NCBI GenBank assembly: GCA_021790275.1
Contig: JAJYIB010000001.1
Span: 1-51,344, forward strand
Source of the DNA: a bacterium
GTDB lineage: Bacteria; Patescibacteriota; Minisyncoccia; UBA10092
Direction: 5' to 3'
DNA: 51,344 bases
The first letter of the stretch is position 1; every line of letters begins with the position of its first letter. A program made the translations under genes and the position numbers. Under the pieces are notes generated by a model. That model made no database searches and was not told the origin of the DNA. It was given only the letters and a program-made list of their open reading frames with translations. Of this stretch, positions 1 through 25,523 are shown one piece after another.

Positions 1-14
1 AAGAATAAAAATAA

Positions 15-185
15 ACCACCTCCATGCGAAGGGGCCAGGCACTATTTTAGACTTCCAAGGCGTCAGTGCCGTTCGCCCTGGAAGCTCCCTGTCATACTTC
101 CCCAGACCGGGAAACGTCTTTGGGGAAGCCCAACTGTTCGTAAAACTCACCCCGTCCGTTGGCGACTAAGAGGTTTTCTTTTTAC
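15..185 (-). ncRNA. candidate structured RNA, either a standalone sRNA or a riboswitch-type leader for a gene left of the window
   Basis: No credible ORF. A near-consensus promoter sits just upstream on the minus strand. Stems CUUCCCC/GGGGAAG and CUUCCAGGG/CCUUGGAAG; the second has a G.U pair only on the minus strand. Loop GGCACU can pair with downstream AGUGCC (pseudoknot). The A-rich 5' end pairs with the U-rich 3' tail. Confidence 0.45.
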
Positions 186-8937: not shown

Positions 8938-9055
8938 CTACTAGCGAATTTAAGAAGCCGACCGAACTATAAAGACAAGAAGATAATGCTAATAGAAGAT
9001 TGATAAAAACGCAAAATCGCGCTATAATTGAGGTATTAAGCGTCATCACTCCATT

Positions 9056-11215
9056 ATGGAACGGGAATCATTTAAACCAACCATTGAAACCGAGCCAAAA
9101 GAGCAGCTGGAAGCTGCTATGCGTTCGAATCCTGAAGGAAAGAAAACAGAAACAAAAGAACGATCCCGGCAGGAGGTAATGGAACTCAAAGATCGCCTCC
9201 ATTTTGTCGCTAAGCTCCTTTCTAAAAATTTTGACTTAAGGGTTATCGCCGGCAGCGGCTGGGCCGCCGGTCTTTCGGAAAAATTTCAAAGAGAACGCCA
9301 GAAACACCCCGATAAGAGCTTGGAAGAACTTGACCCGAAACTTCTTACGCCAGAAGTCATGATGTACCCGGAAAAAGATTTGCTGGAACGAAGCGAGGAT
9401 TTTATCTGGGGCGTATTTCGCCATGAGATGGGTCACATCAAGCATTCGGATTATCAATCACTCATGGAAGCGCAAGAGGGCGCAAAGCAGGAGGGATATA
9501 ATCCGATGGACCTTTTTGTAATCTACGACGCATGGGAAGACGGCCGCTCTAACAATATGGAGGGTCAGACTTCTAAAACAGCGCGACATCGTCTCGGCAC
9601 TTATCTCAAAGAAGATATTTCGGAGGCATTGCTTCTCGATTTTGAAAAAAAGCCGCTCCCCATCCAGTATGGCGCTTTATGCTGGGCAAAAGGAGCGGAA
9701 TCTTTTATTGAAGGGTTTGACTTCGAAGAACTCAAGACAAGAATAAAAGACGAAAAAGTTCTTAAGGCGTTTGAAAAAACCGAAGAGGCTTTAGATGAAT
9801 ACCTTGGCGAGCGAAAAGGACGCAAAGCGTTCACTGACGTTCTCTGGCAAAAAGGATGGCCGATATTCAAAGAGCTCATAGACAAACACATTCAGGATGA
9901 AGCAAAGAAAAACCACGAACGAAAACAAAAAGGAGAAGGCGCACCACAACAGCAGCAGGGACAGCAGGGAGAAAAGGGCGAAGGAAAATCAGAGGAAGGA
10001 CAAGAAGGACAACAATCGCAGGAAGGCAAAGGCCAAAAAGGCGAGCAGAAAAAAGAGGGAAAGCAAAAACAGCCCGGTCAGCAGCCCGGCGAAAGCAAAG
10101 CGTGGGACGAACTTTCACAAGAAGAAAAAGAGCAGTATATCAAAGAAGCTCGCGAAAAGCTGACTGAAGAGGAGCGGGAATTTGTTAAGCGCATCCAGCC
10201 AAAATCAATGCAAATGAAAGAGCGCGAGGATGGCACGATTGAAGTTACTATGAAGGGTGTTTCTCCCGAAGATATCAAGCAAGCCGAACAGGCAGAAAAA
10301 GAATTTGACGAACAAAAAAAGAAAACCGAGCAAGAAGCCGGGAAATACAAAGAGGCAGCGGTCAAAGAGGTTAAAGAATCATTGGAGAAGCTAAAGGAAC
10401 GGGAAACAGGACTTACTAAAGAAGAACGCGAAAAATACGAAGAGTACTTTTCAGAAGTGAGAAAATATGTCGGCGCGTTAGTAGAAAAATTGGATGAAGT
10501 TTTTCCACCTCAGGAAGAGTCGGAATGGGAGGGCGGCCAGCGCCGAGGCAAGAGGGTTGATACAAGAAAACTCGCACGCGAAGTTCCCACTGGGCACGGC
10601 CGCGTATTTGAAAAAAAGGAAGTGCCGGAAATAAAAGAAGCAGCCTTTACTTTGCTTGTTGATGTTTCTGGCAGCATGCAGGGCAATAAAATCGAAGAAG
10701 CCCTCAAAGCCGCCATGCTTATGGCTGAAGCGTTTTCCCGCAAAGGAGTTCCTTTTGAAATCCTCGCTTTCCATGAAAAACTTCTTGAACTCAAACAATT
10801 TGAAGATGAATACTTTGGAAAAAAGAAGCTGGAATTAATGAGGGTGCTTCAGGAAGTGCAGACATCGCACGCGCGATATAATGATGATGGATATGCAGTT
10901 GACGGCGCGGCAAGACGATTGCAAAAACGGCTTTTGGCCAATGATGCACAAGGCGCACTTATTATCTTTTCAGACGGCCGGCCGGAGCCGAGTTCGACAC
11001 ACAGCGGTTCGGAGTGGGAACTGCATGGAATCGTAAACAAATGGTCGAGACAAGTTCCATTAATCGGCGTCGGTATTGGCCCGGGTATGGAATCAACGAT
11101 AAAAGAGTATTATGGTAAAAACGGGCTGCCGGTGCCGGACATTACCAAGCTCCCCCACGCGCTGCTTGATATTTTGCGAAAGCAGATCGCGCGTTTTGAA
11201 AAAAGAAATCAATAA
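9056..11215 (+). CDS. vWA-domain protein with an N-terminal HExxH metallopeptidase-like domain (partner of the MoxR-type ATPase)
   Basis: FRHEMGHIKH motif, a Q/E/K/G-rich low-complexity linker, and a C-terminal vWA domain with MIDAS DVSGSM...NDDG...SDG. No signal peptide or TM segment. Confidence 0.75.
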   Translation: MERESFKPTIETEPKEQLEAAMRSNPEGKKTETKERSRQEVMELKDRLHFVAKLLSKNFDLRVIAGSGWAAGLSEKFQRERQKHPDKSLEELDPKLLTPEVMMYPEKDLLERSEDFIWGVFRHEMGHIKHSDYQSLMEAQEGAKQEGYNPMDLFVIYDAWEDGRSNNMEGQTSKTARHRLGTYLKEDISEALLLDFEKKPLPIQYGALCWAKGAESFIEGFDFEELKTRIKDEKVLKAFEKTEEALDEYLGERKGRKAFTDVLWQKGWPIFKELIDKHIQDEAKKNHERKQKGEGAPQQQQGQQGEKGEGKSEEGQEGQQSQEGKGQKGEQKKEGKQKQPGQQPGESKAWDELSQEEKEQYIKEAREKLTEEEREFVKRIQPKSMQMKEREDGTIEVTMKGVSPEDIKQAEQAEKEFDEQKKKTEQEAGKYKEAAVKEVKESLEKLKERETGLTKEEREKYEEYFSEVRKYVGALVEKLDEVFPPQEESEWEGGQRRGKRVDTRKLAREVPTGHGRVFEKKEVPEIKEAAFTLLVDVSGSMQGNKIEEALKAAMLMAEAFSRKGVPFEILAFHEKLLELKQFEDEYFGKKKLELMRVLQEVQTSHARYNDDGYAVDGAARRLQKRLLANDAQGALIIFSDGRPEPSSTHSGSEWELHGIVNKWSRQVPLIGVGIGPGMESTIKEYYGKNGLPVPDITKLPHALLDILRKQIARFEKRNQ

Positions 11216-11218
11216 CAT

Positions 11219-12115
11219 ATGAACCCAGAAAAACTACAACCTACTCCTGAATCAGCCGAAACTTCCCGCGAAGAAGCCACTGCTTTCGAAGCTTTTGGAA
11301 AGCGCGGACAAAGACCCGGGGACCAGGAGAAGAAAGAACCGCAAATTGAATCCGAGCAAGCTATCTCTCTTGCCCGCGAAGTGGAAGAGGCGTTTGCTCG
11401 GAACGATTTTAACGCGGCTTTAGATAAACTTCGCGAACTTCAACGCACGACATCTCCCGAAGGAGTCGTTGAGAGCGAGCACCACGAACAGCTACTTAAA
11501 GAATTCGAACGCCAAGTCGCCACACTTTCAAAACGAGAATACGCAAAGGCGGCCAAAATGAAGCCGGATGAATTTGCAAGGCTTTTCGGACCGCTTAAAG
11601 AACATATCCGCGAAATCGCCCAGCGCGCAAAAGAAACTAAAGAAAAAGAAGGGCATATTCCATTTATTATTGTTATCAAAAACGATGTCATCGGCGGCGA
11701 AAAAGCCATGCCACTCATAGAGCTTGAGGGCAAAAAGGGATATACAGACATGAGCGCGGACGCTATCAAAGGATGTAAACCATATGAAGTAAAGCTTCCC
11801 GAAGGCAAGGCATATCTTGCGATTGATATTGAAACAGGCAAAACCACTCTTGGCAAAACTCCAGATGAAGCAATCAAACAAATCAAAAAAGACAACCGCT
11901 CGGCACTCACTGTGGAAGAAGCGGTTGCTCTCATCACTCATCACCCTGAAATTCTTAAAGATCACTATGTTTGGGCTAGTGGCTCTCGCCACGGCGCCGA
12001 CAAGGTCGCGTATTTGTGGCTCTACGAGGGTGAGCCGAGGCTCCACTGGCTCAGCTCGGACTACTCGGATGCGGAGTGGGGCTCGGCCTCCTGCGGTAGT
12101 AGAGTTGGGCCTTGA
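11219..12115 (+). CDS. DGR variable (target) protein 1
   Basis: 298 aa. The last ~41 codons are VR1. It is a paralog of 13885-14781 and starts 3 nt after the vWA stop. Confidence 0.85.
   Translation: MNPEKLQPTPESAETSREEATAFEAFGKRGQRPGDQEKKEPQIESEQAISLAREVEEAFARNDFNAALDKLRELQRTTSPEGVVESEHHEQLLKEFERQVATLSKREYAKAAKMKPDEFARLFGPLKEHIREIAQRAKETKEKEGHIPFIIVIKNDVIGGEKAMPLIELEGKKGYTDMSADAIKGCKPYEVKLPEGKAYLAIDIETGKTTLGKTPDEAIKQIKKDNRSALTVEEAVALITHHPEILKDHYVWASGSRHGADKVAYLWLYEGEPRLHWLSSDYSDAEWGSASCGSRVGP
11979..12100 (+). repeat. DGR variable region VR1
   Basis: A 122-nt match to the reverse complement of the TR (16517-16638). There are 11 mismatches, all at TR adenines. Confidence 0.9.
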
Positions 12116-12177
12116 TGCTTGGATGCTTGTCCCTCTTGTTTCTTGATATTTGATTTCCGCGAAAATTTTTTTAGAGG
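12101..12177 (+). repeat. 77-nt VR-flanking block, copy 1 (candidate target-recognition/IMH-distal element)
   Basis: 100% identical to 14767-14843. Contains the target stop codon and a tandem GATGCTTG GATGCTTG. Confidence 0.8.
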
Positions 12178-12229
12178 ATCCGCAAATCAAGTTGATAAAA
12201 TAACAAAATTAAACTATAATTTAATCAAT

Positions 12230-13876
12230 ATGCGCGAAGGCTTTCCAACAATTGAACGATTTGAGGCATTCAAGCCAGAGGATGCCGAAAAACTCTCGGA
12301 GATTACCCGTATCCGAGAAGATCTTTTGAAATCCGAAGCTTTGCCAAAAGAGGCAAAGGATATTTTATCTGGCATCAAAGTCCAAGAAAAATCCAAAGAA
12401 GTTTTTGAAGCTCTGGAAACGCACGAGCAGGAAAAAGAAACTATCGGGGTAAGCGAGCAAGAAAAAGAAGTGCGTATCGGCCGGGAAACAACCCCAATTT
12501 TCGAAGGGCCGACAGAAAAGCTGACTTGGCAGCTTCAAGCCGAGCAATTCCGAGAACAAGGCCAGACAATGGTTGAGCTGGCTTTTAAGCGCAATGACGG
12601 CGTAGAGGTAAAGCCGGGCGGCGTTGCCAGAGGCAAGACAAGATTCGGCGAATATGAACGCTATCTCCCGCTGGAAGAATATAAAGCTCTCAAAAAAGAA
12701 AATTCAAAATATCTGGATGCGGTTGATAAAATAACAAGCGGCGATGAAAAAGAACGACAAGCCGCCGAAGAATATCTAACCAAATTCAAACAGGATCACC
12801 CCAAATCCGAGTGGGTGCTTCGCGCCATGCGCCATCTCAATTCCCTTGCGGTTCACGAATCCTGCGAAACGCTTGAGCGAGATCCATATTTCGTGGAAAC
12901 CCCGTATGTGGTTGAGACAATGGAAAAACTTACACGCCTTATCAATCGCCAGCGCGAGCGGCAACAGGGAATCGTAATCATTGAAGGTGATGCCGGTACT
13001 GGAAAAAATAAAATCGTTGACCACCTCGCCTATCTCACCAAACGGCCGGTATTTCGTTTTACTTGTTCAGCCGGCAAAGACGAACAGGATTTGAAGTATC
13101 TTTTGGAATATGATGCCAAAAAAGGCACTTACCGCATTAAGTCCACCGTCATTGAAGCTCTGGAAACCCCGGGCGCAGTTCTTGAATTTGACGAAATCAA
13201 CACCTTAAAACCCGAGGTTGCTAAAATACTGAACTCTCTTTTTGACCACGACCGCGCACTTTTCTTGGGCGAAGATCGGACATCGGTAAAAGCGGCCGAA
13301 GAAGTGGTTATGGTCGGACTTCAAAATCCCCAACACTATATGGGAGTCAAACCGCTTACCGAAACTATCAAATCCCGAGCCCGCATTATGGAAGTTGGCT
13401 ATCCGCCGTTTGAAAAAGAAAAAGCGAGTCCTAACGAGCAAACACAATATCGTTCCGACGAAGCACTTATCGTTCGCCAATATATCCCCGAACTCAAAGA
13501 TTTGGATCAAAGAGAGTTTCAAATTCTTTGGGATTCGGTTGTAAACAAGAAAGAAGATCCCCGGGCGCACGAACTCCTAACAAGCGCAAGAAAAGAGCGG
13601 ATCGAGGATGTGAAAGAAGTTGTGGAGATGGCAAATAAGATTCGTGAGGCTTATCGGGCTTACCACGAAGGCAAATCAGATGAGCCAATCAAATTCGTCT
13701 TTAGTTTGCGCGAATCTGTTGAGTGTGCTTTTGAGCTTCCTCATGTTGAATTGACCGCCGAGGAAAAAAGAAAGGGTATTACCCGCGCTAAAAAAGCGGT
13801 GCAGGAAGTTGTTTTGCCAAAGATTCCGCTTGGCGAAGAGCGCACCTATCTTCAAAGCCTTGTTGCCGAACTCTAA
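12230..13876 (+). CDS. AAA+ ATPase, MoxR/AAA_5-like
   Basis: Walker A (IIEGDAGTGKNK), Walker B (VLEFDEIN), sensor-like GLQNP and SRARI. The start was moved to the ATG at 12230 because 12119-12229 is the conserved VR flank. Confidence 0.8.
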   Translation: MREGFPTIERFEAFKPEDAEKLSEITRIREDLLKSEALPKEAKDILSGIKVQEKSKEVFEALETHEQEKETIGVSEQEKEVRIGRETTPIFEGPTEKLTWQLQAEQFREQGQTMVELAFKRNDGVEVKPGGVARGKTRFGEYERYLPLEEYKALKKENSKYLDAVDKITSGDEKERQAAEEYLTKFKQDHPKSEWVLRAMRHLNSLAVHESCETLERDPYFVETPYVVETMEKLTRLINRQRERQQGIVIIEGDAGTGKNKIVDHLAYLTKRPVFRFTCSAGKDEQDLKYLLEYDAKKGTYRIKSTVIEALETPGAVLEFDEINTLKPEVAKILNSLFDHDRALFLGEDRTSVKAAEEVVMVGLQNPQHYMGVKPLTETIKSRARIMEVGYPPFEKEKASPNEQTQYRSDEALIVRQYIPELKDLDQREFQILWDSVVNKKEDPRAHELLTSARKERIEDVKEVVEMANKIREAYRAYHEGKSDEPIKFVFSLRESVECAFELPHVELTAEEKRKGITRAKKAVQEVVLPKIPLGEERTYLQSLVAEL

Positions 13877-13884
13877 TTATTATT

Positions 13885-14781
13885 ATGAGCGTTGAAAAAC
13901 CACAATTTACTCCTCAAGAATCCGCAGAAGGAGAAGTCAAAACAGAATTTGAAGCGTTTTTTAAAGATAAAAGCAAAAAAGGACAAAAAGAAGAGCCGGA
14001 AGAAGTGAAAGAACGAAAAGCCGAGCTTGAACAAAAAGCCGTGACGCTCGCTCAAGAAGCCGAGCGGGCGTTTTCTTCAAACGACTTAACGCAAGCCCTC
14101 GAAAAACTCCGCGAATTGCAGCGCACCGTCGGAATGGAGATGGTTGAAAACCGCGAACAATATGAAAAATTCGAGCAGGAGTTTAATCGCCAAATAGATA
14201 ATCTCTCCAAGAAAGGATTTCCCAAGCTTGCCGGCATGGATGAGAAAAAATTCGCCGCGATATTCGAACCATTAAAGGAGAAACTTAAGGAACTTTCCTC
14301 GCGGGAGTTTCAAGAAGGCCGAATTCCATTCGTAGTCGTTCCGCGAGACAAACTTCTTGCTTTAGAAAAGCAAATGCCTCTTGTTGAACTTGAAGGTAAA
14401 AAGGGATCTACGGGCTTTGACGATGTATCCGGATACTTCACCACCGCCAAGGGCGTTGAAATCCCGGAAGCGATGGCATATCTCGTAGTAGACATCGAAA
14501 ACGGCAAAGTCATGCTCGGGAAAAGCGCAGATGAGGCGGTAAAACAATTCAAAAAAGAAGGACGTTCTCCGCTTACCGCCGATGAAGGCGTCGCACTAAT
14601 ACTCCAGCACCCGGAAATTCTTAAAGATCATTCGCTGGACTTGCCCGGCTCTCGCCGCGGCGCCGACAGGGTCGCGGGTTTGTGGCTCTACGGGGGTGAG
14701 CCGGGGCTCAGCTGGAGCAGCTCGGACTACTCGGATGCGAGGTGGGGCTCGGCCTCCTGCGGTAGTAGAGTTGGGCCTTGA
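13885..14781 (+). CDS. DGR variable (target) protein 2
   Basis: 298-aa paralog of 11219-12115 with VR2 at its C-terminus. Starts 8 nt after the ATPase stop. Confidence 0.85.
   Translation: MSVEKPQFTPQESAEGEVKTEFEAFFKDKSKKGQKEEPEEVKERKAELEQKAVTLAQEAERAFSSNDLTQALEKLRELQRTVGMEMVENREQYEKFEQEFNRQIDNLSKKGFPKLAGMDEKKFAAIFEPLKEKLKELSSREFQEGRIPFVVVPRDKLLALEKQMPLVELEGKKGSTGFDDVSGYFTTAKGVEIPEAMAYLVVDIENGKVMLGKSADEAVKQFKKEGRSPLTADEGVALILQHPEILKDHSLDLPGSRRGADRVAGLWLYGGEPGLSWSSSDYSDARWGSASCGSRVGP
14647..14766 (+). repeat. DGR variable region VR2
   Basis: A 120-nt match to the reverse complement of the TR. There are 15 mismatches, all at TR adenines (13 A->G, 2 A->T). Confidence 0.9.
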
Positions 14782-14843
14782 TGCTTGGATGCTTGTCCCT
14801 CTTGTTTCTTGATATTTGATTTCCGCGAAAATTTTTTTAGAGG
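14767..14843 (+). repeat. 77-nt VR-flanking block, copy 2
   Basis: Identical to 12101-12177. Confidence 0.8.
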
Positions 14844-14850
14844 TATTTCT

Positions 14851-14883
14851 AAAGAGCAGATAAAAATCTGCTCTTTTCGTTTG
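14851..14883 (+). terminator. rho-independent terminator after variable protein 2
   Basis: 10-bp stem AAAGAGCAGA/TCTGCTCTTT with loop TAAAAA and a T-rich tail. Confidence 0.65.
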
Positions 14884-14907
14884 GCATAAAAGGTGGTATA
14901 TTTAAAT

Positions 14908-15035
14908 TGCTGCCTACAATATCGAATACGCGCACGCGAGGTTATCTGCCTTCTTAAGGGCCCGATTGCGGCCTGAAAGGGGCAGCCGACCTCCACAATC
15001 GGTGCGCCTCGGTGCATTCGATATTGTGGGCAGCA
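14908..15035. other. 128-nt multi-stem element closed by a 20-bp inverted repeat (structured RNA or MITE-like)
   Basis: TGCTGCCTACAATATCGAAT (14908-14927) pairs with ATTCGATATTGTGGGCAGCA (15016-15035) with one transition. Nested stems CGATT/AATCG, CTGCC/GGCAG and GCAC(G)CGAGG/CCTCGGTGC. Abuts the RT stop codon. Confidence 0.45.
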
Positions 15036-15037
15036 GG

Positions 15038-16114
15038 CTACGGCTGTCCCTTTTTTGTTTGGTCTGAAGGTTCTTTCACCCACTGCCAAAACTGCTGATG
15101 AAGCTTCTCTCTTAATTTATGGCTGTCGGCATGGACAAGAAACCCCATGTAAGAATCAAACGATCTCAAAAGGGATTCCTCGCTGATCAACCCAGCCTTA
15201 AATTGTTTGACCTTATAGCGCAGTTTTCTGAAAATTCTTCTGCGAACTTTTGCGCGAGGAACGCGAGCGTACGGCAAAGAAACATAACCCAAATAATCGA
15301 TTCCTTGCCGCAACTTGCGAATTTCCACTTTATTGGGATGAAGGGACAGATCAAGATGTGTTCTCAAAAAATCTGAAATTTTGTCTTTCAGCGAAGCGAG
15401 ATATTGATCGTCATGATGGAGAATCACAAAATCATCCGTATATCGAAGGTAATATTTCACTTTGAGGTCATGCTTCACGAACTGATCCAATTCATTCATG
15501 TAAATATTGGCGAACATCTGCGAGGTAAGATTGCCGATGGGCGCTCCTTTAATGCCGAGTCTCTGGTCGGCATCGGACGCGAAACTTCCAATGATTACTC
15601 CGACCAAATCCAAAACATCCTGATCTTTAATTTTGCGACCGATGATCTCCAGAAGGATTTGATGGTCAATGGTCGGAAAAAATTGCCGAATGTCGCACTT
15701 GAGCGCAAAGCATCCGCCTTTCGTTTGAAAAACTTTTCGTGCGTAAACGCCGAGCTGCTTCACCCCCTTATGGGTTCCCTTTTCTTTCCTGCAAGAATAA
15801 GAATCGGGAATAAAGGTCGACTCAAAAATGGGGTTAATAACGCGGAAAACCGCGTGATGGACGATTCTGTCGCGGACGGTGGCTTTGTGAATATGCCTCA
15901 ACTTCGGATCGCGGACATAAAAATCGACATACTCGCCATGCCGATATCTTTTATGGATCAGGCCGCGGTGAAGTTTAAAGAGGTTATCTCCCAAATGCCG
16001 CTCAAAAAGCTGGACATCGGCTTTTTTCCGCTTTTCTCTTTTGAAATCGTCCCACGCTTCGAGGAGATTCTCTGTTGAGACGATTTGCTCGAATAGTTTT
16101 CTGTAAACTTTCAT
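15038..16114 (-). CDS. DGR reverse transcriptase
   Basis: YTDD catalytic box (YLRYTDDFVIL) and the DGR-type IGNLTSQ motif in place of the group II/retron SP motif. 358 aa. Confidence 0.9.
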   Translation of the reverse strand: MKVYRKLFEQIVSTENLLEAWDDFKREKRKKADVQLFERHLGDNLFKLHRGLIHKRYRHGEYVDFYVRDPKLRHIHKATVRDRIVHHAVFRVINPIFESTFIPDSYSCRKEKGTHKGVKQLGVYARKVFQTKGGCFALKCDIRQFFPTIDHQILLEIIGRKIKDQDVLDLVGVIIGSFASDADQRLGIKGAPIGNLTSQMFANIYMNELDQFVKHDLKVKYYLRYTDDFVILHHDDQYLASLKDKISDFLRTHLDLSLHPNKVEIRKLRQGIDYLGYVSLPYARVPRAKVRRRIFRKLRYKVKQFKAGLISEESLLRSFDSYMGFLVHADSHKLREKLHQQFWQWVKEPSDQTKKGQP

Positions 16115-16474
16115 ATGAGAAATTTAGATCAATTAAACAACGATGCTCCGATTCTTAAACATACCATCGATCTCTACAAGGAACTCTACGGATATCTGAA
16201 AACATTTCCGAAAAAAGATCAGTATCTGCTCGGAAAGCAAATCGAAGAGCATGTGCTGGTTTTCTTGGAGCTGATCCTGATGGCCGCCGGAATGCAAAGG
16301 TTGCAAAAGTTGGAAGTCCTTGAGCAAGCCAACGGAAAATACGAGGTCTTCAAGGTGCTGCTGTATGTGGCTCGCGAGATGAAGATGATCAACAACGAAA
16401 AGTATCTTTCGGCGGAAGCAAAGGCACAAGAAATCGGAATGCAGCTTGGCGGATGGATACGCTCTTTGAGATAG
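16115..16474 (+). CDS. avd: Avd-like accessory variability determinant (four-helix-bundle, 23S rRNA IVS-protein family)
   Basis: 119 aa with an Avd-like pattern (..YGYLKTFPKKDQYLLGKQIEEH...EIGMQLGGWIRSL). Sits directly beside the RT. Confidence 0.75.
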   Translation: MRNLDQLNNDAPILKHTIDLYKELYGYLKTFPKKDQYLLGKQIEEHVLVFLELILMAAGMQRLQKLEVLEQANGKYEVFKVLLYVAREMKMINNEKYLSAEAKAQEIGMQLGGWIRSLR

Positions 16475-16475
16475 C

Positions 16476-16503
16476 GAAAGGCGTCCTTTCGAGGACGCCT
16501 TTC
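16476..16503. terminator. perfect hairpin between the avd stop and the TR (candidate bidirectional terminator or DGR RNA element)
   Basis: GAAAGGCGTCC(T)-TTCG-(A)GGACGCCTTTC, a 12-bp stem with a UUCG loop on plus (CGAA on minus). T-rich sequence follows on plus, and TTTCGC follows on minus. Confidence 0.6.
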
Positions 16504-16516
16504 TATGATTTAAACG

Positions 16517-16638
16517 ACTACCGCAGGAGGCCGAGCCCCACTTCGCATTCGAGTTGTCCGAGTTGTTCCAGTTGAGCTTCGGCTTACCCTCGTTGAGCCA
16601 CAAATTCGCGACCTTGTCGGCGCCGTGGCGAGAGCCAC
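16517..16638 (-). repeat. DGR template region (TR)
   Basis: The minus strand matches VR1 and VR2. It contains 27 adenines, mostly in AAC/AAT/AAG codons (..NLWLNEGKPKLNWNNSDNSNAKWGSASCGSR). It is not part of a long ORF: a TAA lies 3 codons upstream. Confidence 0.9.
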
Positions 16639-17073
16639 ACCGGCATTACTGCTTCCCAACCGAGCCACCGAAGATCGAGCTTTACTTCCCGCTGGAAGCG
16701 GACCTATAAGCTTTCACTCCTGAATTTAATACGGCGGCAGGCCGAGCTTTTGGCTCTTGCCACCCGCGCTAGGAAACAGTAAGTAGTAGCTAAAATCTCA
16801 CTGCACGCTCATGACGACCGTAATCGCCATGATTCTGGCAAGTTTGCTGAGAGTTCAGGATTTCGGCGACCGCGGACCGTAATCCGCGATGCAGTAGCCT
16901 ACTTTCATACGTAAAATAGCACTCCAAGATTATTTTTACAATTATAAAATAAATAAACAAAATGGCAGTAAAGTTCAACTGCTGGTTTTTATTCAACTCA
17001 TTATCAGCGCAAGCCACTCGGATCACAGCTCACTCGCTATCACTCGGGTCATATCGATAATAAATTTTCTTGA
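16639..17073 (-). promoter_or_regulatory. 435-nt non-coding leader between tRNA-Glu and the TR, with twin hairpins
   Basis: No credible ORF. On the minus strand, CGCGGA-UUACGG-UCCGCG (about 16868-16885) and AUGGCGA-UUACGG-UCGUCAU (about 16811-16830) share the same loop. An AT-rich promoter-like stretch with TATAAT lies around 16940-16990. Confidence 0.4.
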
Positions 17074-17146
17074 CAGCCCCGACGGGATTCGAACCCGTGT
17101 CGCTTGGATGAGAACCAAGTATCCTGAACCGCTAGACGACAGGGCC
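17074..17146 (-). tRNA. tRNA-Glu (anticodon CUC)
   Basis: Manual cloverleaf: GGCCCUG acceptor, anticodon loop UUCUCAU, T-loop UUCGAAU. No CCA is encoded. Confidence 0.88.
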
Positions 17147-17268
17147 GGATTAAATTTGCGGAATCTTCGCCCGCTCTCCCGTTCGCGCGGATTTGAATTT
17201 CGAATCCGCGATTTATTATAAACCAAACCGGTTGCTTCCGGCAACTTTTTGTGCCATAATTTCGCATA

Positions 17269-17964
17269 ATGGATCCCAAAAAAAATCTCATTTTTCTCCA
17301 CGGCTGGGGCGTTTCGTCGAAAATCTTCAAGCCGCTTTTTTATTTTCTTAGAAACGATTTCGAAATTTACGCCGTTGATCTGCCGGGTTTCGGCGCCGCG
17401 CCGATCGAAAATCAGATGAGCTTGAAAGATTACGCCGAATTCGTCCTCGATTTCATTCAAAAAAATAAAATCAAAGATCCGATCGTCGCCGGCCATTCTT
17501 TCGGCGGCGCGGCGGCGGCCAAGTCGGCTCTGCTGTATCCCGAGTCGATTTCCAAGCTCGTTTTAATCGGCTCGGCGGCAATTCGCGAACCGGATTTAAA
17601 AATCCGCGCGCTCGCCAAAGCCGCCAAAATTTTTAAAAAATTTTTTCCGGAAAAATCCCGCGCCGCCGTTTTGAAAATTTTAAACCTCGGCGAAACCGAT
17701 TACGCCAAAATCGAAAATCCCGTTTTGAAAGAAACTTTTAAAAAAATCATCAAAGAAAATCTGGCGGCGGAACTGGCGGCGATAAAAATTCCGACGCTTG
17801 TCGTCTGGGGTGAAAAAGACGAAGCGACTCCGCTCAAAGAAGGAATAAAAACCGCGGAATTGATCCGCGGCGCCGAACTGGTTGTCGTAAAAAACGCCGG
17901 CCATTTTATGTTTTTGGAAAAACCCAACGAATTCGCGAAAATAATAAAAAAATTCGCTTTATAA
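17269..17964 (+). CDS. alpha/beta hydrolase
   Basis: LHGWG and the nucleophile elbow GHSFGG. 231 aa. Confidence 0.75.
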   Translation: MDPKKNLIFLHGWGVSSKIFKPLFYFLRNDFEIYAVDLPGFGAAPIENQMSLKDYAEFVLDFIQKNKIKDPIVAGHSFGGAAAAKSALLYPESISKLVLIGSAAIREPDLKIRALAKAAKIFKKFFPEKSRAAVLKILNLGETDYAKIENPVLKETFKKIIKENLAAELAAIKIPTLVVWGEKDEATPLKEGIKTAELIRGAELVVVKNAGHFMFLEKPNEFAKIIKKFAL

Positions 17965-24553: not shown

Positions 24554-24931
24554 TTATTTCAATTCGACCGCGGCTCCGGCTTCTTCCAGTTTCTTTTTCA
24601 ACTCTTCCGCTTCGGCTTTGCTAGCGCCGTTTTTCACAACCTGCGGCGCGGTGTCAACCAACTGCTTCGCTTCCTGCAATCCCTTGCCGGTAGCTTCGCG
24701 GACTACTTTGATAACAGCGATTTTCTGATCGCCCGCCTTGGTTAAAACCACATCGAACGAACTTTTTTCTTCCGCCGCCATAGCTTCACCCGTTCCGGCC
24801 GCCGGCATCGCCATCATCGGCGCTGACGCCGATACGCCGAATTTTTCTTCGAGCGCTTTAACCAATTCGGAAAGTTCGAGCGCGGTCAGCTTTTCTATTT
24901 CTTCTATTATTTTATTGTATTTGTCCGACAT
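24554..24931 (-). CDS. rplL: 50S ribosomal protein L7/L12
   Basis: Typical L12 sequence: an A/G/M-rich hinge and a C-terminal KEAKDLV-like domain. Confidence 0.92.
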
Positions 24932-24998
24932 ATTTTTATATTAATTTATATTTATTAAATAATTTTTAAAATTTAAAAATTATAAATTTAAAATTTTT

Positions 24999-25523
24999 CT
25001 ACGACCTTTTATTTTTAATATTGTTCAGCACGTTGATGAGATTGCGGGTATTGCCTTGCAAAACATTCATAAAACCGGAAATCGGAGCGGCAATAGCGCC
25101 GGCCAACTGTCCCAAAAGAACTTCGCGCGGTGGCAGTTTCGCCAAAGCGACGATTCTTTCTTTACCCTGCCAGTTCAATCCCAAAAATCCGCCAATGATT
25201 TTAAGCGCTTCATTGGCTTTGGAAAATTTGAACGCCGAACTGGCCGCCGCGGCCGGATCGGCATAGCCGAAAATCACTCCGACCTGACTTTTGAATTGAT
25301 CCAAATCGGCATTTTCGAAATGTTCCGCCTTCAAAGCGCGGTCAATCAAAGTTTTTTTGGCGACTTTGTATTCGGCATCGACCGTTTTCAACCCTCGCCT
25401 CAATTCCATGCTTTTACCGACCGACAGTTTGTTAAAATCAACCAAAATAGCCGTTTTTGCCCGATGAAATTTCTCGACCAAATCTTTCAAAATATTTTGT
25501 TTTTGTTCTTTATTGAGAGGCAT
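24999..25523 (-). CDS. rplJ: 50S ribosomal protein L10
   Basis: Immediately upstream of rplL with L10-like sequence. Confidence 0.88.
   Translation of the reverse strand: MPLNKEQKQNILKDLVEKFHRAKTAILVDFNKLSVGKSMELRRGLKTVDAEYKVAKKTLIDRALKAEHFENADLDQFKSQVGVIFGYADPAAAASSAFKFSKANEALKIIGGFLGLNWQGKERIVALAKLPPREVLLGQLAGAIAAPISGFMNVLQGNTRNLINVLNNIKNKRS

Follow-up and report, generated by a model that had tools for sequence, protein, structure and literature searches.

The window analysed here, 51,344 nt of contig JAJYIB010000001.1 (assembly GCA_021790275.1) from a bacterium of the Patescibacteriota (Minisyncoccia; UBA10092), raises the question of whether a reverse transcriptase (RT) gene and three near-identical repeats in its vicinity form a complete diversity-generating retroelement (DGR), and how such an element is built, carried and primed. 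The answer, which is held with high confidence, is that the locus is a complete and probably functional DGR from the lineage known as candidate phyla radiation (CPR, Patescibacteria), with architecture B3, carried on a portable 7.9-kb cassette. The original prediction had called a complete DGR from the raw letters, and a DGR-clade RT, an Avd protein, one template repeat (TR) and two C-terminal variable repeats (VRs) are indeed all present and intact. The DGR itself is ordinary and of the standard CPR type; the results that go further concern the DUF5701 scaffold of its targets, the portable cassette and a leader RNA. These three, and the inversion of avd, are additions to the original prediction.

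The TR (reverse complement of 16517-16638, minus strand) is 122 nt long and contains 27 adenines. It was compared with VR1 (11979-12100, plus strand) and VR2 (14647-14766, plus strand) in a MAFFT alignment and by an independent count. VR1 differs from the TR at 11 positions (5 A>G, 4 A>T, 2 A>C) and VR2, in which homology to the TR begins 2 nt later at the 5' end, at 15 (13 A>G, 2 A>T). All 26 differences are located at TR adenines, with none at C, G or T and no indels. The chance of 26/26 differences falling on adenines is ~9e-18 (binomial), and the hypergeometric p values are 9e-9 for VR1 and 4e-12 for VR2. These counts and substitution classes, like the 27 adenines, had been obtained by hand in the original prediction and were reproduced exactly by the computed alignment, which was also checked for non-adenine mismatches and indels. 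No third VR was found within the window.

Both VRs lie at the 3' ends of open reading frames (ORFs) of 298 aa and end 15 nt before the stop codon. By codon position (1/2/3) the TR adenines are distributed 12/15/0, and they are spread over 16 codons, mainly AAC (x5), AAT (x2) and AAG (x4), as had been noticed earlier; the others are GAC (x2), CAC, GAG and AGT. Sixteen variable codons correspond to ~10^15.7 possible proteins per VR. The GC-rich end of the repeat is the same in TR, VR1 and VR2 over the last 25 nt, one more than the 24 first reported. Its likeness to an initiation-of-mutagenic-homing (IMH) sequence is plausible, with a caveat that IMH and IMH* are indistinguishable within the homology here.

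The TR and the VRs part only beyond the repeat, where VR1 and VR2 have a common 77-nt 3' flank (12101..12177 and 14767..14843, both plus strand). It consists of the last four codons and the stop codon, followed by non-coding CTTGA repeats and CCGCGAAAATTTTTTT. The two flanks match one another at 100%, as they do the two flanks of the related locus L001, although identity between the target genes is just 53%. No homology to this flank exists in the TR. In distant CPR DGRs (L005, L007 and L008), the VRs are likewise followed by CTTGA repeats of a similar kind and by a CCGCG(N)AAATTTTTT motif. On the basis of these sequences, the 77-nt flank is proposed as a candidate target-recognition element.

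The DGR reverse transcriptase (15038..16114, minus strand, 358 aa) matches RVT_1 (8e-20) and phrog_1423 (3.9e-113). The motifs noted earlier were found at residue 193 (IGNLTSQ) and residue 225 (YTDD), and they fit the DGR-clade criteria of an [I/L]GxxxSQ box plus a YxDD catalytic box. The adjoining Avd-like gene was also confirmed: avd (16115..16474, plus strand, 119 aa) matches PF22296 bAvd with 54.8 bits (cut-off 40) and phrog_3206 ('Avd protein of DGR'), while its score against NF033474, 66.9 bits, is under the cut-off of 80. Two ORFs on the RT strand (17023-17496 and 16790-17026) were also considered as avd; they have no family match and overlap tRNA-Glu or the leader, so the plus-strand ORF was preferred.

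The TR and RT are on the same strand, with the TR 400 nt upstream of the RT, and the RT is convergent to the plus-strand target operon. The avd gene lies between TR and RT, antisense to both and head-to-head with the RT, the ATG of one abutting the ATG of the other. This order, with the TR past the 3' end of avd on the RT strand, was found in every CPR relative recovered (RT 42-89% identical), whereas the Firmicutes relatives (RT 34-39% identical) have the canonical avd-TR-RT order. Architecture B3, 'TR-(avd)-RT', was named by Wu et al. 2018 (PMC5758913), who found it in 90% of their CPR set, and CPR DGRs form a separate cellular clade (DGR clade 2) with targets that lack recognisable domains (Roux et al. 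2021, PMC8144416). With its TR/inverted avd/RT order, the element is of the known CPR type. In all B3 loci the start codons of RT and avd either touch (CAT|ATG) or lie in a short overlap of the two ORFs, a few nucleotides long (16112-16117 in the window; likewise L005 and L007-L011). Judging from this arrangement, the promoters and ribosome-binding sites of the two genes must lie inside each other's coding sequence, or else a long transcript of leader and TR, running antisense to avd, must be the message for the RT.

Between the TR and the avd stop codon, 13 nt 3' of the TR, there is a 12-bp hairpin (16476..16503, minus strand). A strong hairpin was found at the same place 3' of the TR in 11/11 B3 loci examined, with unrelated stem sequences. 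By analogy it likely corresponds to the stem-loop that binds Avd in the Bordetella phage DGR RNA. Its sequence also resembles a terminator, on the plus strand only, and this terminator would serve avd. The gap of 257 nt between the convergent target 2 and RT genes contains a 31-nt inverted repeat with 81% complementarity (14908-14938 / 15005-15035) and a separate terminator-like hairpin at 14850-14880.

Evidence of activity comes from comparisons between loci. Non-adenine TR substitutions reappear in both VRs of the same locus (T53C, G93T and C110G in L001; TGGG at 75-78 in L004 and L012). Between sister loci, the adenine positions of the VRs differ freely while the TR-specific non-adenine changes match the locus' own TR. 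Since same-locus VRs carry these substitutions, the sequences indicate that information passed from TR to VR after the sister lineages split. One sister cassette was assembled from two different samples (L038 and L039): the TRs are the same, the flanks agree at 99-100%, and the 12 VR positions that differ are all TR adenines. On this evidence the cassette family is active. In a more distant B3 DGR (L059 and L060), 15/15 differences are at TR adenines within 16 kb of 99.9% identity. The directional TR-to-VR transfer and the adenine-only VR polymorphism in the cassette family both back the DGR interpretation of the original prediction.

The cassette spans ~9000-16910, from the operon promoter to the leader, and was found in at least four unrelated contexts at 79-92% identity with constant ends. 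The copies are located at 9000-16910 in the window, 5165-13033 in L001, 5124-11947 in L033, 5202-12730 in L034 and 7058-11531 in L004. Over window positions 9055-16910 the identity is 92% with L001 and 79-82% with L004, L033 and L034, and beyond the ends there is no similarity. Homology stops at ~16908-16910 in every context, and the left edge is marked by a promoter-like element, TTGATA-N17-TATAAT (9000..9028, plus strand), which is predicted from sequence in front of the target operon and semi-conserved in the window, L001, L033 and L034. No mobility gene is present inside the cassette and no terminal repeats were seen.

The window is a fragment of a bacterial chromosome (CysRS, DnaB, RecR, Ddl, PBP, MraW/MraZ, ribosomal proteins and six tRNAs), and the cassette is located in it beside tRNA-Glu. 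In L001 the context is a prophage-like region with an integrase, an excisionase-like helix-turn-helix protein, HNH, a DNA methylase, an endolysin-like protein and a head-tail adaptor. The L033 copy is beside an integrase fragment and SecA, and the L034 copy beside rplJ-rplL, so that an integrase or integrase fragment is near two of the cassette contexts. There are no phage structural genes near the cassette in the window, L033 or L034. A distant DUF5701 gene (P0076) and likewise the L034 cassette are directly upstream of rplJ-rplL (L035 10001-11197; L034 12938-13960), and in the window rplJ-rplL is found at 24554-25523, 8 kb away. Ribosomal protein genes inside CPR DGRs were remarked on by Wu et al. 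2018 (PMC5758913). The close homologue P0001 was named 'ribosomal protein S21' by JGI, a name which is probably spurious and owed to its charged N-terminus.

Directly 5' of the TR there is a conserved, non-coding region of ~270 nt (16639..16908, minus strand), which forms the structured leader. From its 5' end, it comprises the hairpins P1 (16892-16868) and P2 (16832-16809), a primer-like block (16795-16783) complementary across the end of TR/VR homology, and the 10-bp helix P3 (16780-16771 with 16657-16648), which is 99% paired and has compensatory changes in 9/10 pairs. These are followed by helix P4 (16767-16764 with 16737-16734), a conserved single strand (16734-16717) and helix P5 (16720-16710 with 16680-16670), all on the minus strand. 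Promoter-like hexamers are predicted upstream of the leader (16941..16968, minus strand) with 10/12 matches in a consensus scan.

The structure was predicted with RNAalifold and pair counts from 18 leaders of CPR B3 DGRs, giving a common structure of 49 pairs. The proportion of paired cells was 94%, against 67% in column shuffles and 39-50% in slid controls. Compensatory changes were seen in 43/49 pairs (30 in column shuffles, 22-26 in slid controls) and the covariation score was 0.78 (0.28 and 0.14-0.18, respectively). None of 500 shuffles was as high as the observed values. The many G-U pairs that were kept imply a leader RNA read from the TR strand. A long-range pairing between the 5' end of the leader and the 3' end of the TR, suggested by RNAalifold from four sequences, was not reproduced with nine and was dropped.

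A covariance model (R1) was built from the inner leader domain (101 positions) and searched over 1.25 Mb. It gave exactly one match per B3 locus, always directly 5' of the TR, including loci outside model building, and none elsewhere; the only match in the window is at 16770-16666. On the spacers of canonical avd-TR-RT relatives there was no match. In Rfam 15, at gathering thresholds and at E<=10 and with the RT-1..19 motifs included, no family was found on the TR, leader or hairpin, and a structured leader 5' of the TR was found neither in Rfam nor in the accessible literature. The leader appears from these alignments to be a conserved folded RNA, uncatalogued and restricted to this DGR class. 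The P1 and P2 loops (16889-16870 and 16832-16809) carry the same UUACGG, replaced by UCACGG or UCAUGG in relatives and conserved across distant CPR DGRs; this repeated loop could be a protein-binding site. In L104 (422-587), which counts among the decayed or rearranged copies, the TR and hairpin are kept and the sequence 5' of the TR is unrelated to the leader.

The primer-like block is predicted to pair with the 3' end of its own TR more strongly than with those of others: the duplex has a mean of -13.3 kcal/mol for cognate and -8.1 kcal/mol for non-cognate combinations (Mann-Whitney p=1.9e-4; 0/20000 permutations as low). The complementarity is kept while its sequence shifts between lineages. 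In a same-locus control, the TR boundary was among the best 5% of partners within +-3 kb in 8/10 lineages (Fisher combined p 8e-11). P3 begins 2 nt after the primer-like block and its partner strand (16657-16648) ends 9 nt before the TR. In the Bordetella phage DGR RNA, the Avd-binding stem-loop after the TR is followed by the primer strand that pairs with the TR 3' end, 2 nt, the strand of the stop duplex and the RT-binding elements, and the stop-duplex strand pairs with a segment just upstream of the TR (bioRxiv 10.1101/2023.10.23.563531).

These parallels suggest, as a tentative proposal that is plausible rather than probable, that CPR-type (B3) DGRs use a circularly permuted DGR RNA, in which the leader supplies the cis-priming strand, the stop duplex and probably the RT-binding elements. 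Under this hypothesis the leader/TR topology would be that of the Bordetella phage RNA opened elsewhere in the chain. The minus-strand RNA would comprise the folded leader of ~270 nt, the 122-nt TR and the 12-bp hairpin, and only this Avd-binding-like hairpin would stay 3' of the TR. Priming would use the leader segment 16795-16783 pairing across the TR 3' boundary, P3 would serve as the stop duplex, and the leader would probably also supply RT-binding elements. Following the Bordetella phage paradigm, the RT-Avd complex would reverse-transcribe the TR with misincorporation opposite adenines. The cDNA would then replace VR1 or VR2, guided by the identical GC-rich 3' end and the 77-nt flank common to both VRs, and retrohoming would recode 16 codons per VR. 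That avd can lie between TR and RT in inverted orientation throughout this lineage would be accounted for by a permuted RNA.

The target operon begins with a CobT-like VWA protein (9056..11215, plus strand, 719 aa; Pfam CobT_C 5e-11 and VWA 9e-6; CobT-like in PHROG), which has the MIDAS motif DVSGS at residue 536. It is followed by target gene 1 (11219..12115, plus strand, 298 aa), a DUF5701 protein (PF18959, 5.8e-30). Next is a MoxR/CobS-like AAA+ ATPase (12230..13876, plus strand; AAA_5 1.2e-19; PHROG 249) with the Walker A motif GDAGTGKN and the Walker B motif VLEFDEIN. Its ORF opens at TTG 12119; the likely start is ATG 12230, and the gene calls in L001, L033 and L034 are of 548 aa. Target gene 2 (13885..14781, plus strand, 298 aa; PF18959, 3.2e-31) is a paralogue of target 1, with 53% identity. 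No signal peptide and no hydrophobic segment was found in either target, the VWA protein or the AAA+ ATPase.

The best phage-protein matches of the VWA protein and the ATPase are to the CobS/CobT-like families PHROG 249, 5298 and 17276, and these are partial. The match to the CobT equivalog reaches 31.8 bits with a cut-off of 759, and there is no cobalamin gene context here. In the otherwise unassigned N-terminal 290 residues of the VWA protein, there is a conserved HE(M/L)GH motif (HEMGH, residues 123-127), followed after this region by a Q/E/K-rich low-complexity linker. The N-terminus has a weak Peptidase_M48 match (E=0.029), and the motif-bearing region may be a metallopeptidase domain.

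The DUF5701 family profile covers 1,720 clusters at 50% identity, and the name 'DUF5701' was not found in the literature searched. Homologues of the targets and the RT are almost solely from Patescibacteria/CPR assemblies, the close ones named Patescibacteria, Lloydbacteria and Portnoybacteria. In close protein homologues, 43-57% of differences fall in the 44-residue VR. DUF5701 proteins fall into two groups (P0092-P0231), one with a nearly invariant C-terminal GWCWAGNPHTWLGSASC and the other hypervariable at exactly the TR-adenine codons; judging from this conservation, the first group is presumably not diversified.

An AlphaFold (AF2) model of target 2 residues 95-298 has a pLDDT of 95.4 and a pTM of 0.92. 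The best structural matches are weak: the C-terminal (fibre tip) domain of Bdellovibrio Bd2740 (prob 0.97, target-length-normalised TM-score 0.63) and animal C-type lectin domains (target-normalised TM-score 0.4-0.54), with Mtd aligning only marginally. The family profile found nothing under E=0.1 among PDB sequences, and Pfam has no link of DUF5701 to FGE-sulfatase, Lectin_C or DUF1566. From the model, DUF5701 would be either a very divergent C-type lectin (CLec) fold or a new scaffold. Judging from gene context and from precedent in known systems, the two soluble targets, each with its VR on the C-terminal DUF5701 domain, are most likely the variable subunits with which a MoxR-type AAA+/VWA machine binds ligands. 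The module would most likely be one of anticipatory recognition (conflict/defence-type) and not a surface adhesin.

Several observations weigh against parts of this account. Three other assemblies of the strain (L113, L114 and L115) match the window at 100.000% identity, both VRs included, over up to 11 kb, and decayed cassettes exist in relatives: L033 kept both targets, with an RT fragment of 188 aa (11107-11961) and no TR or leader, and L042 lacks the TR and leader. These findings would fit a frozen relic, that is, a once-active DGR which no longer diversifies in this strain and whose VRs are now fixed. Such a state is unlikely, since the local RT, avd, TR, leader and hairpin, like both target ORFs, are intact and the sister cassette described above, with an RT 87% identical, is polymorphic solely at TR adenines between two samples. 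Moreover, the strain comparison was made on the assembly consensus of the window and the three other assemblies, which hides minor variants, and identical assemblies may stem from closely related samples. Other points against the account are that four TR AAG codons are mutable to TAG (stop) and that a GC-rich Bordetella-type hairpin is absent from the first ~80 nt after either VR; a GC-rich inverted repeat downstream of the VR is present in only 34% of DGRs (Wu et al. 2018, PMC5758913). As for the permuted RNA, the priming duplex in the window reaches only -8.0 kcal/mol (4.5th percentile of same-locus windows) and is weakest in the lineage of the window, it is not significant alone in L007 and L048, and comparison of the leader with canonical relatives' spacers detected no sequence homology. 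Because of this missing homology, the permutation is a topological analogy only. The same facts, together with the leader forming the right cassette end in every context, would fit an independent element 5' of the TR (a regulatory 5' untranslated region, a small RNA, or a DNA recombination/att-like site at the cassette end) outside the reverse-transcription RNA. We consider this quite improbable: covariation and the many kept G-U pairs point to an RNA on the TR strand, the region is contiguous with the TR in 30/30 loci and is found nowhere else in 1.25 Mb, one of its segments covaries with the TR 3' boundary across ten lineages, and P3 ends close to the TR.

The role of the targets is also open to objections. 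It is the gene neighbourhood that suggests their function and ties them to the AAA+/VWA proteins; PADLOC matched only generic RT models, with no model for the targets, ATPase, VWA protein or Avd, and Foldseek searches of the full-length and C-terminal models against PDB and BFVD gave no match at E<=1e-3. The DUF5701 targets might instead be extracellular or surface adhesins with which an episymbiotic CPR cell or its phage binds hosts, in the manner of classical DGR targets, with the AAA+/VWA pair as an assembly chaperone. Receptor binding is the role of most DGR targets characterised so far, CPR bacteria depend on hosts, the L001 cassette is in a prophage-like region beside lysis and structural genes, and there is the weak structural likeness to C-type lectin domains and to the Bdellovibrio fibre tip. 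This explanation is nevertheless doubtful: signal peptides and hydrophobic segments are absent from all four operon proteins, no DUF5701 relatives were found when IMG/VR viral contigs were scanned, and the cassette is chromosomal and away from phage structural genes in the window, L033 and L034. Soluble, variable sensor subunits are the reading that we prefer.

The results bear on several wider matters. Hand alignment of raw sequence was able to call a DGR correctly. DUF5701, with about 1,700 clusters at 50% identity and a fold without a close solved relative, comes out as a major scaffold on which DGRs generate hypervariation. The cassette joins a MoxR/VWA machine to two diversified paralogues and travels between chromosomes and a prophage-like element, and the idea of a 'hypermutated sensor' would thereby be extended beyond multicellular bacteria. 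How cDNA might be primed in the commonest CPR DGR architecture, in which an antisense gene occupies the canonical 3' spacer, can be put to the test with a model drawn from the covarying leader. If the model is true, permuted DGR RNA would define an uncatalogued RNA family specific to B3 retroelements.

Among known systems, the CPR B3 DGRs (Wu et al. 2018, PMC5758913; Roux et al. 2021, PMC8144416) have the same TR/inverted avd/RT order and the same host group. They are likewise cellular and chromosomal, with several targets that lack recognisable membrane domains and a VR class that is not assignable to the known CLec/Ig classes. What is described here in addition is the cassette of VWA, DUF5701, AAA+ and DUF5701 genes and its portability. 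The phage CobS/CobT-like AAA+/VWA pairs (PHROG 249, 5298 and 17276) are the families that the two machine proteins match best, though partially, among phage proteins, but they are not paired with DGR targets.

The BPP-1 DGR of Bordetella phage (Handa et al. 2018, PMC6182149; bioRxiv 10.1101/2023.10.23.563531) shares the adenine-specific TR-to-VR transfer, the RT and Avd, and a stem-loop directly 3' of the TR. The likeness extends to a primer strand across the TR 3' end and, 2 nt on, a strand that pairs just 5' of the TR, both of which are candidates from sequence in the window. The avd, TR and RT of BPP-1 all point the same way, and a 140-nt spacer 3' of the TR holds the RNA for priming, stopping and RT binding. 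In the window, antisense avd fills the space 3' of the hairpin, and the candidates for these elements are 5' of the TR. The BPP-1 target is the phage tail-fibre C-type lectin Mtd, while the targets here are DUF5701 proteins, with no GC-rich hairpin after their VRs.

The VMAP ternary systems (Kaur et al. 2020, PMC7159879; Dore et al. 2024, PMC10907252) are conflict systems whose DGR targets are likewise encoded with MoxR-like AAA+ and vWA proteins. In both cases the targets are cytoplasmic and proposed to be variable sensors. The ternary systems carry the VR in a C-type lectin (FGS) domain, usually fused to vWA, include VMAP with a peptidase, TIR or other effectors, have an RT of another clade and occur in multicellular bacteria. 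Pfam scans of the window at curated thresholds gave no match to a VMAP protein, peptidase or TIR, and no clear effector was found; the VR is instead carried on separate small DUF5701 proteins, in a CPR host with a reduced genome.

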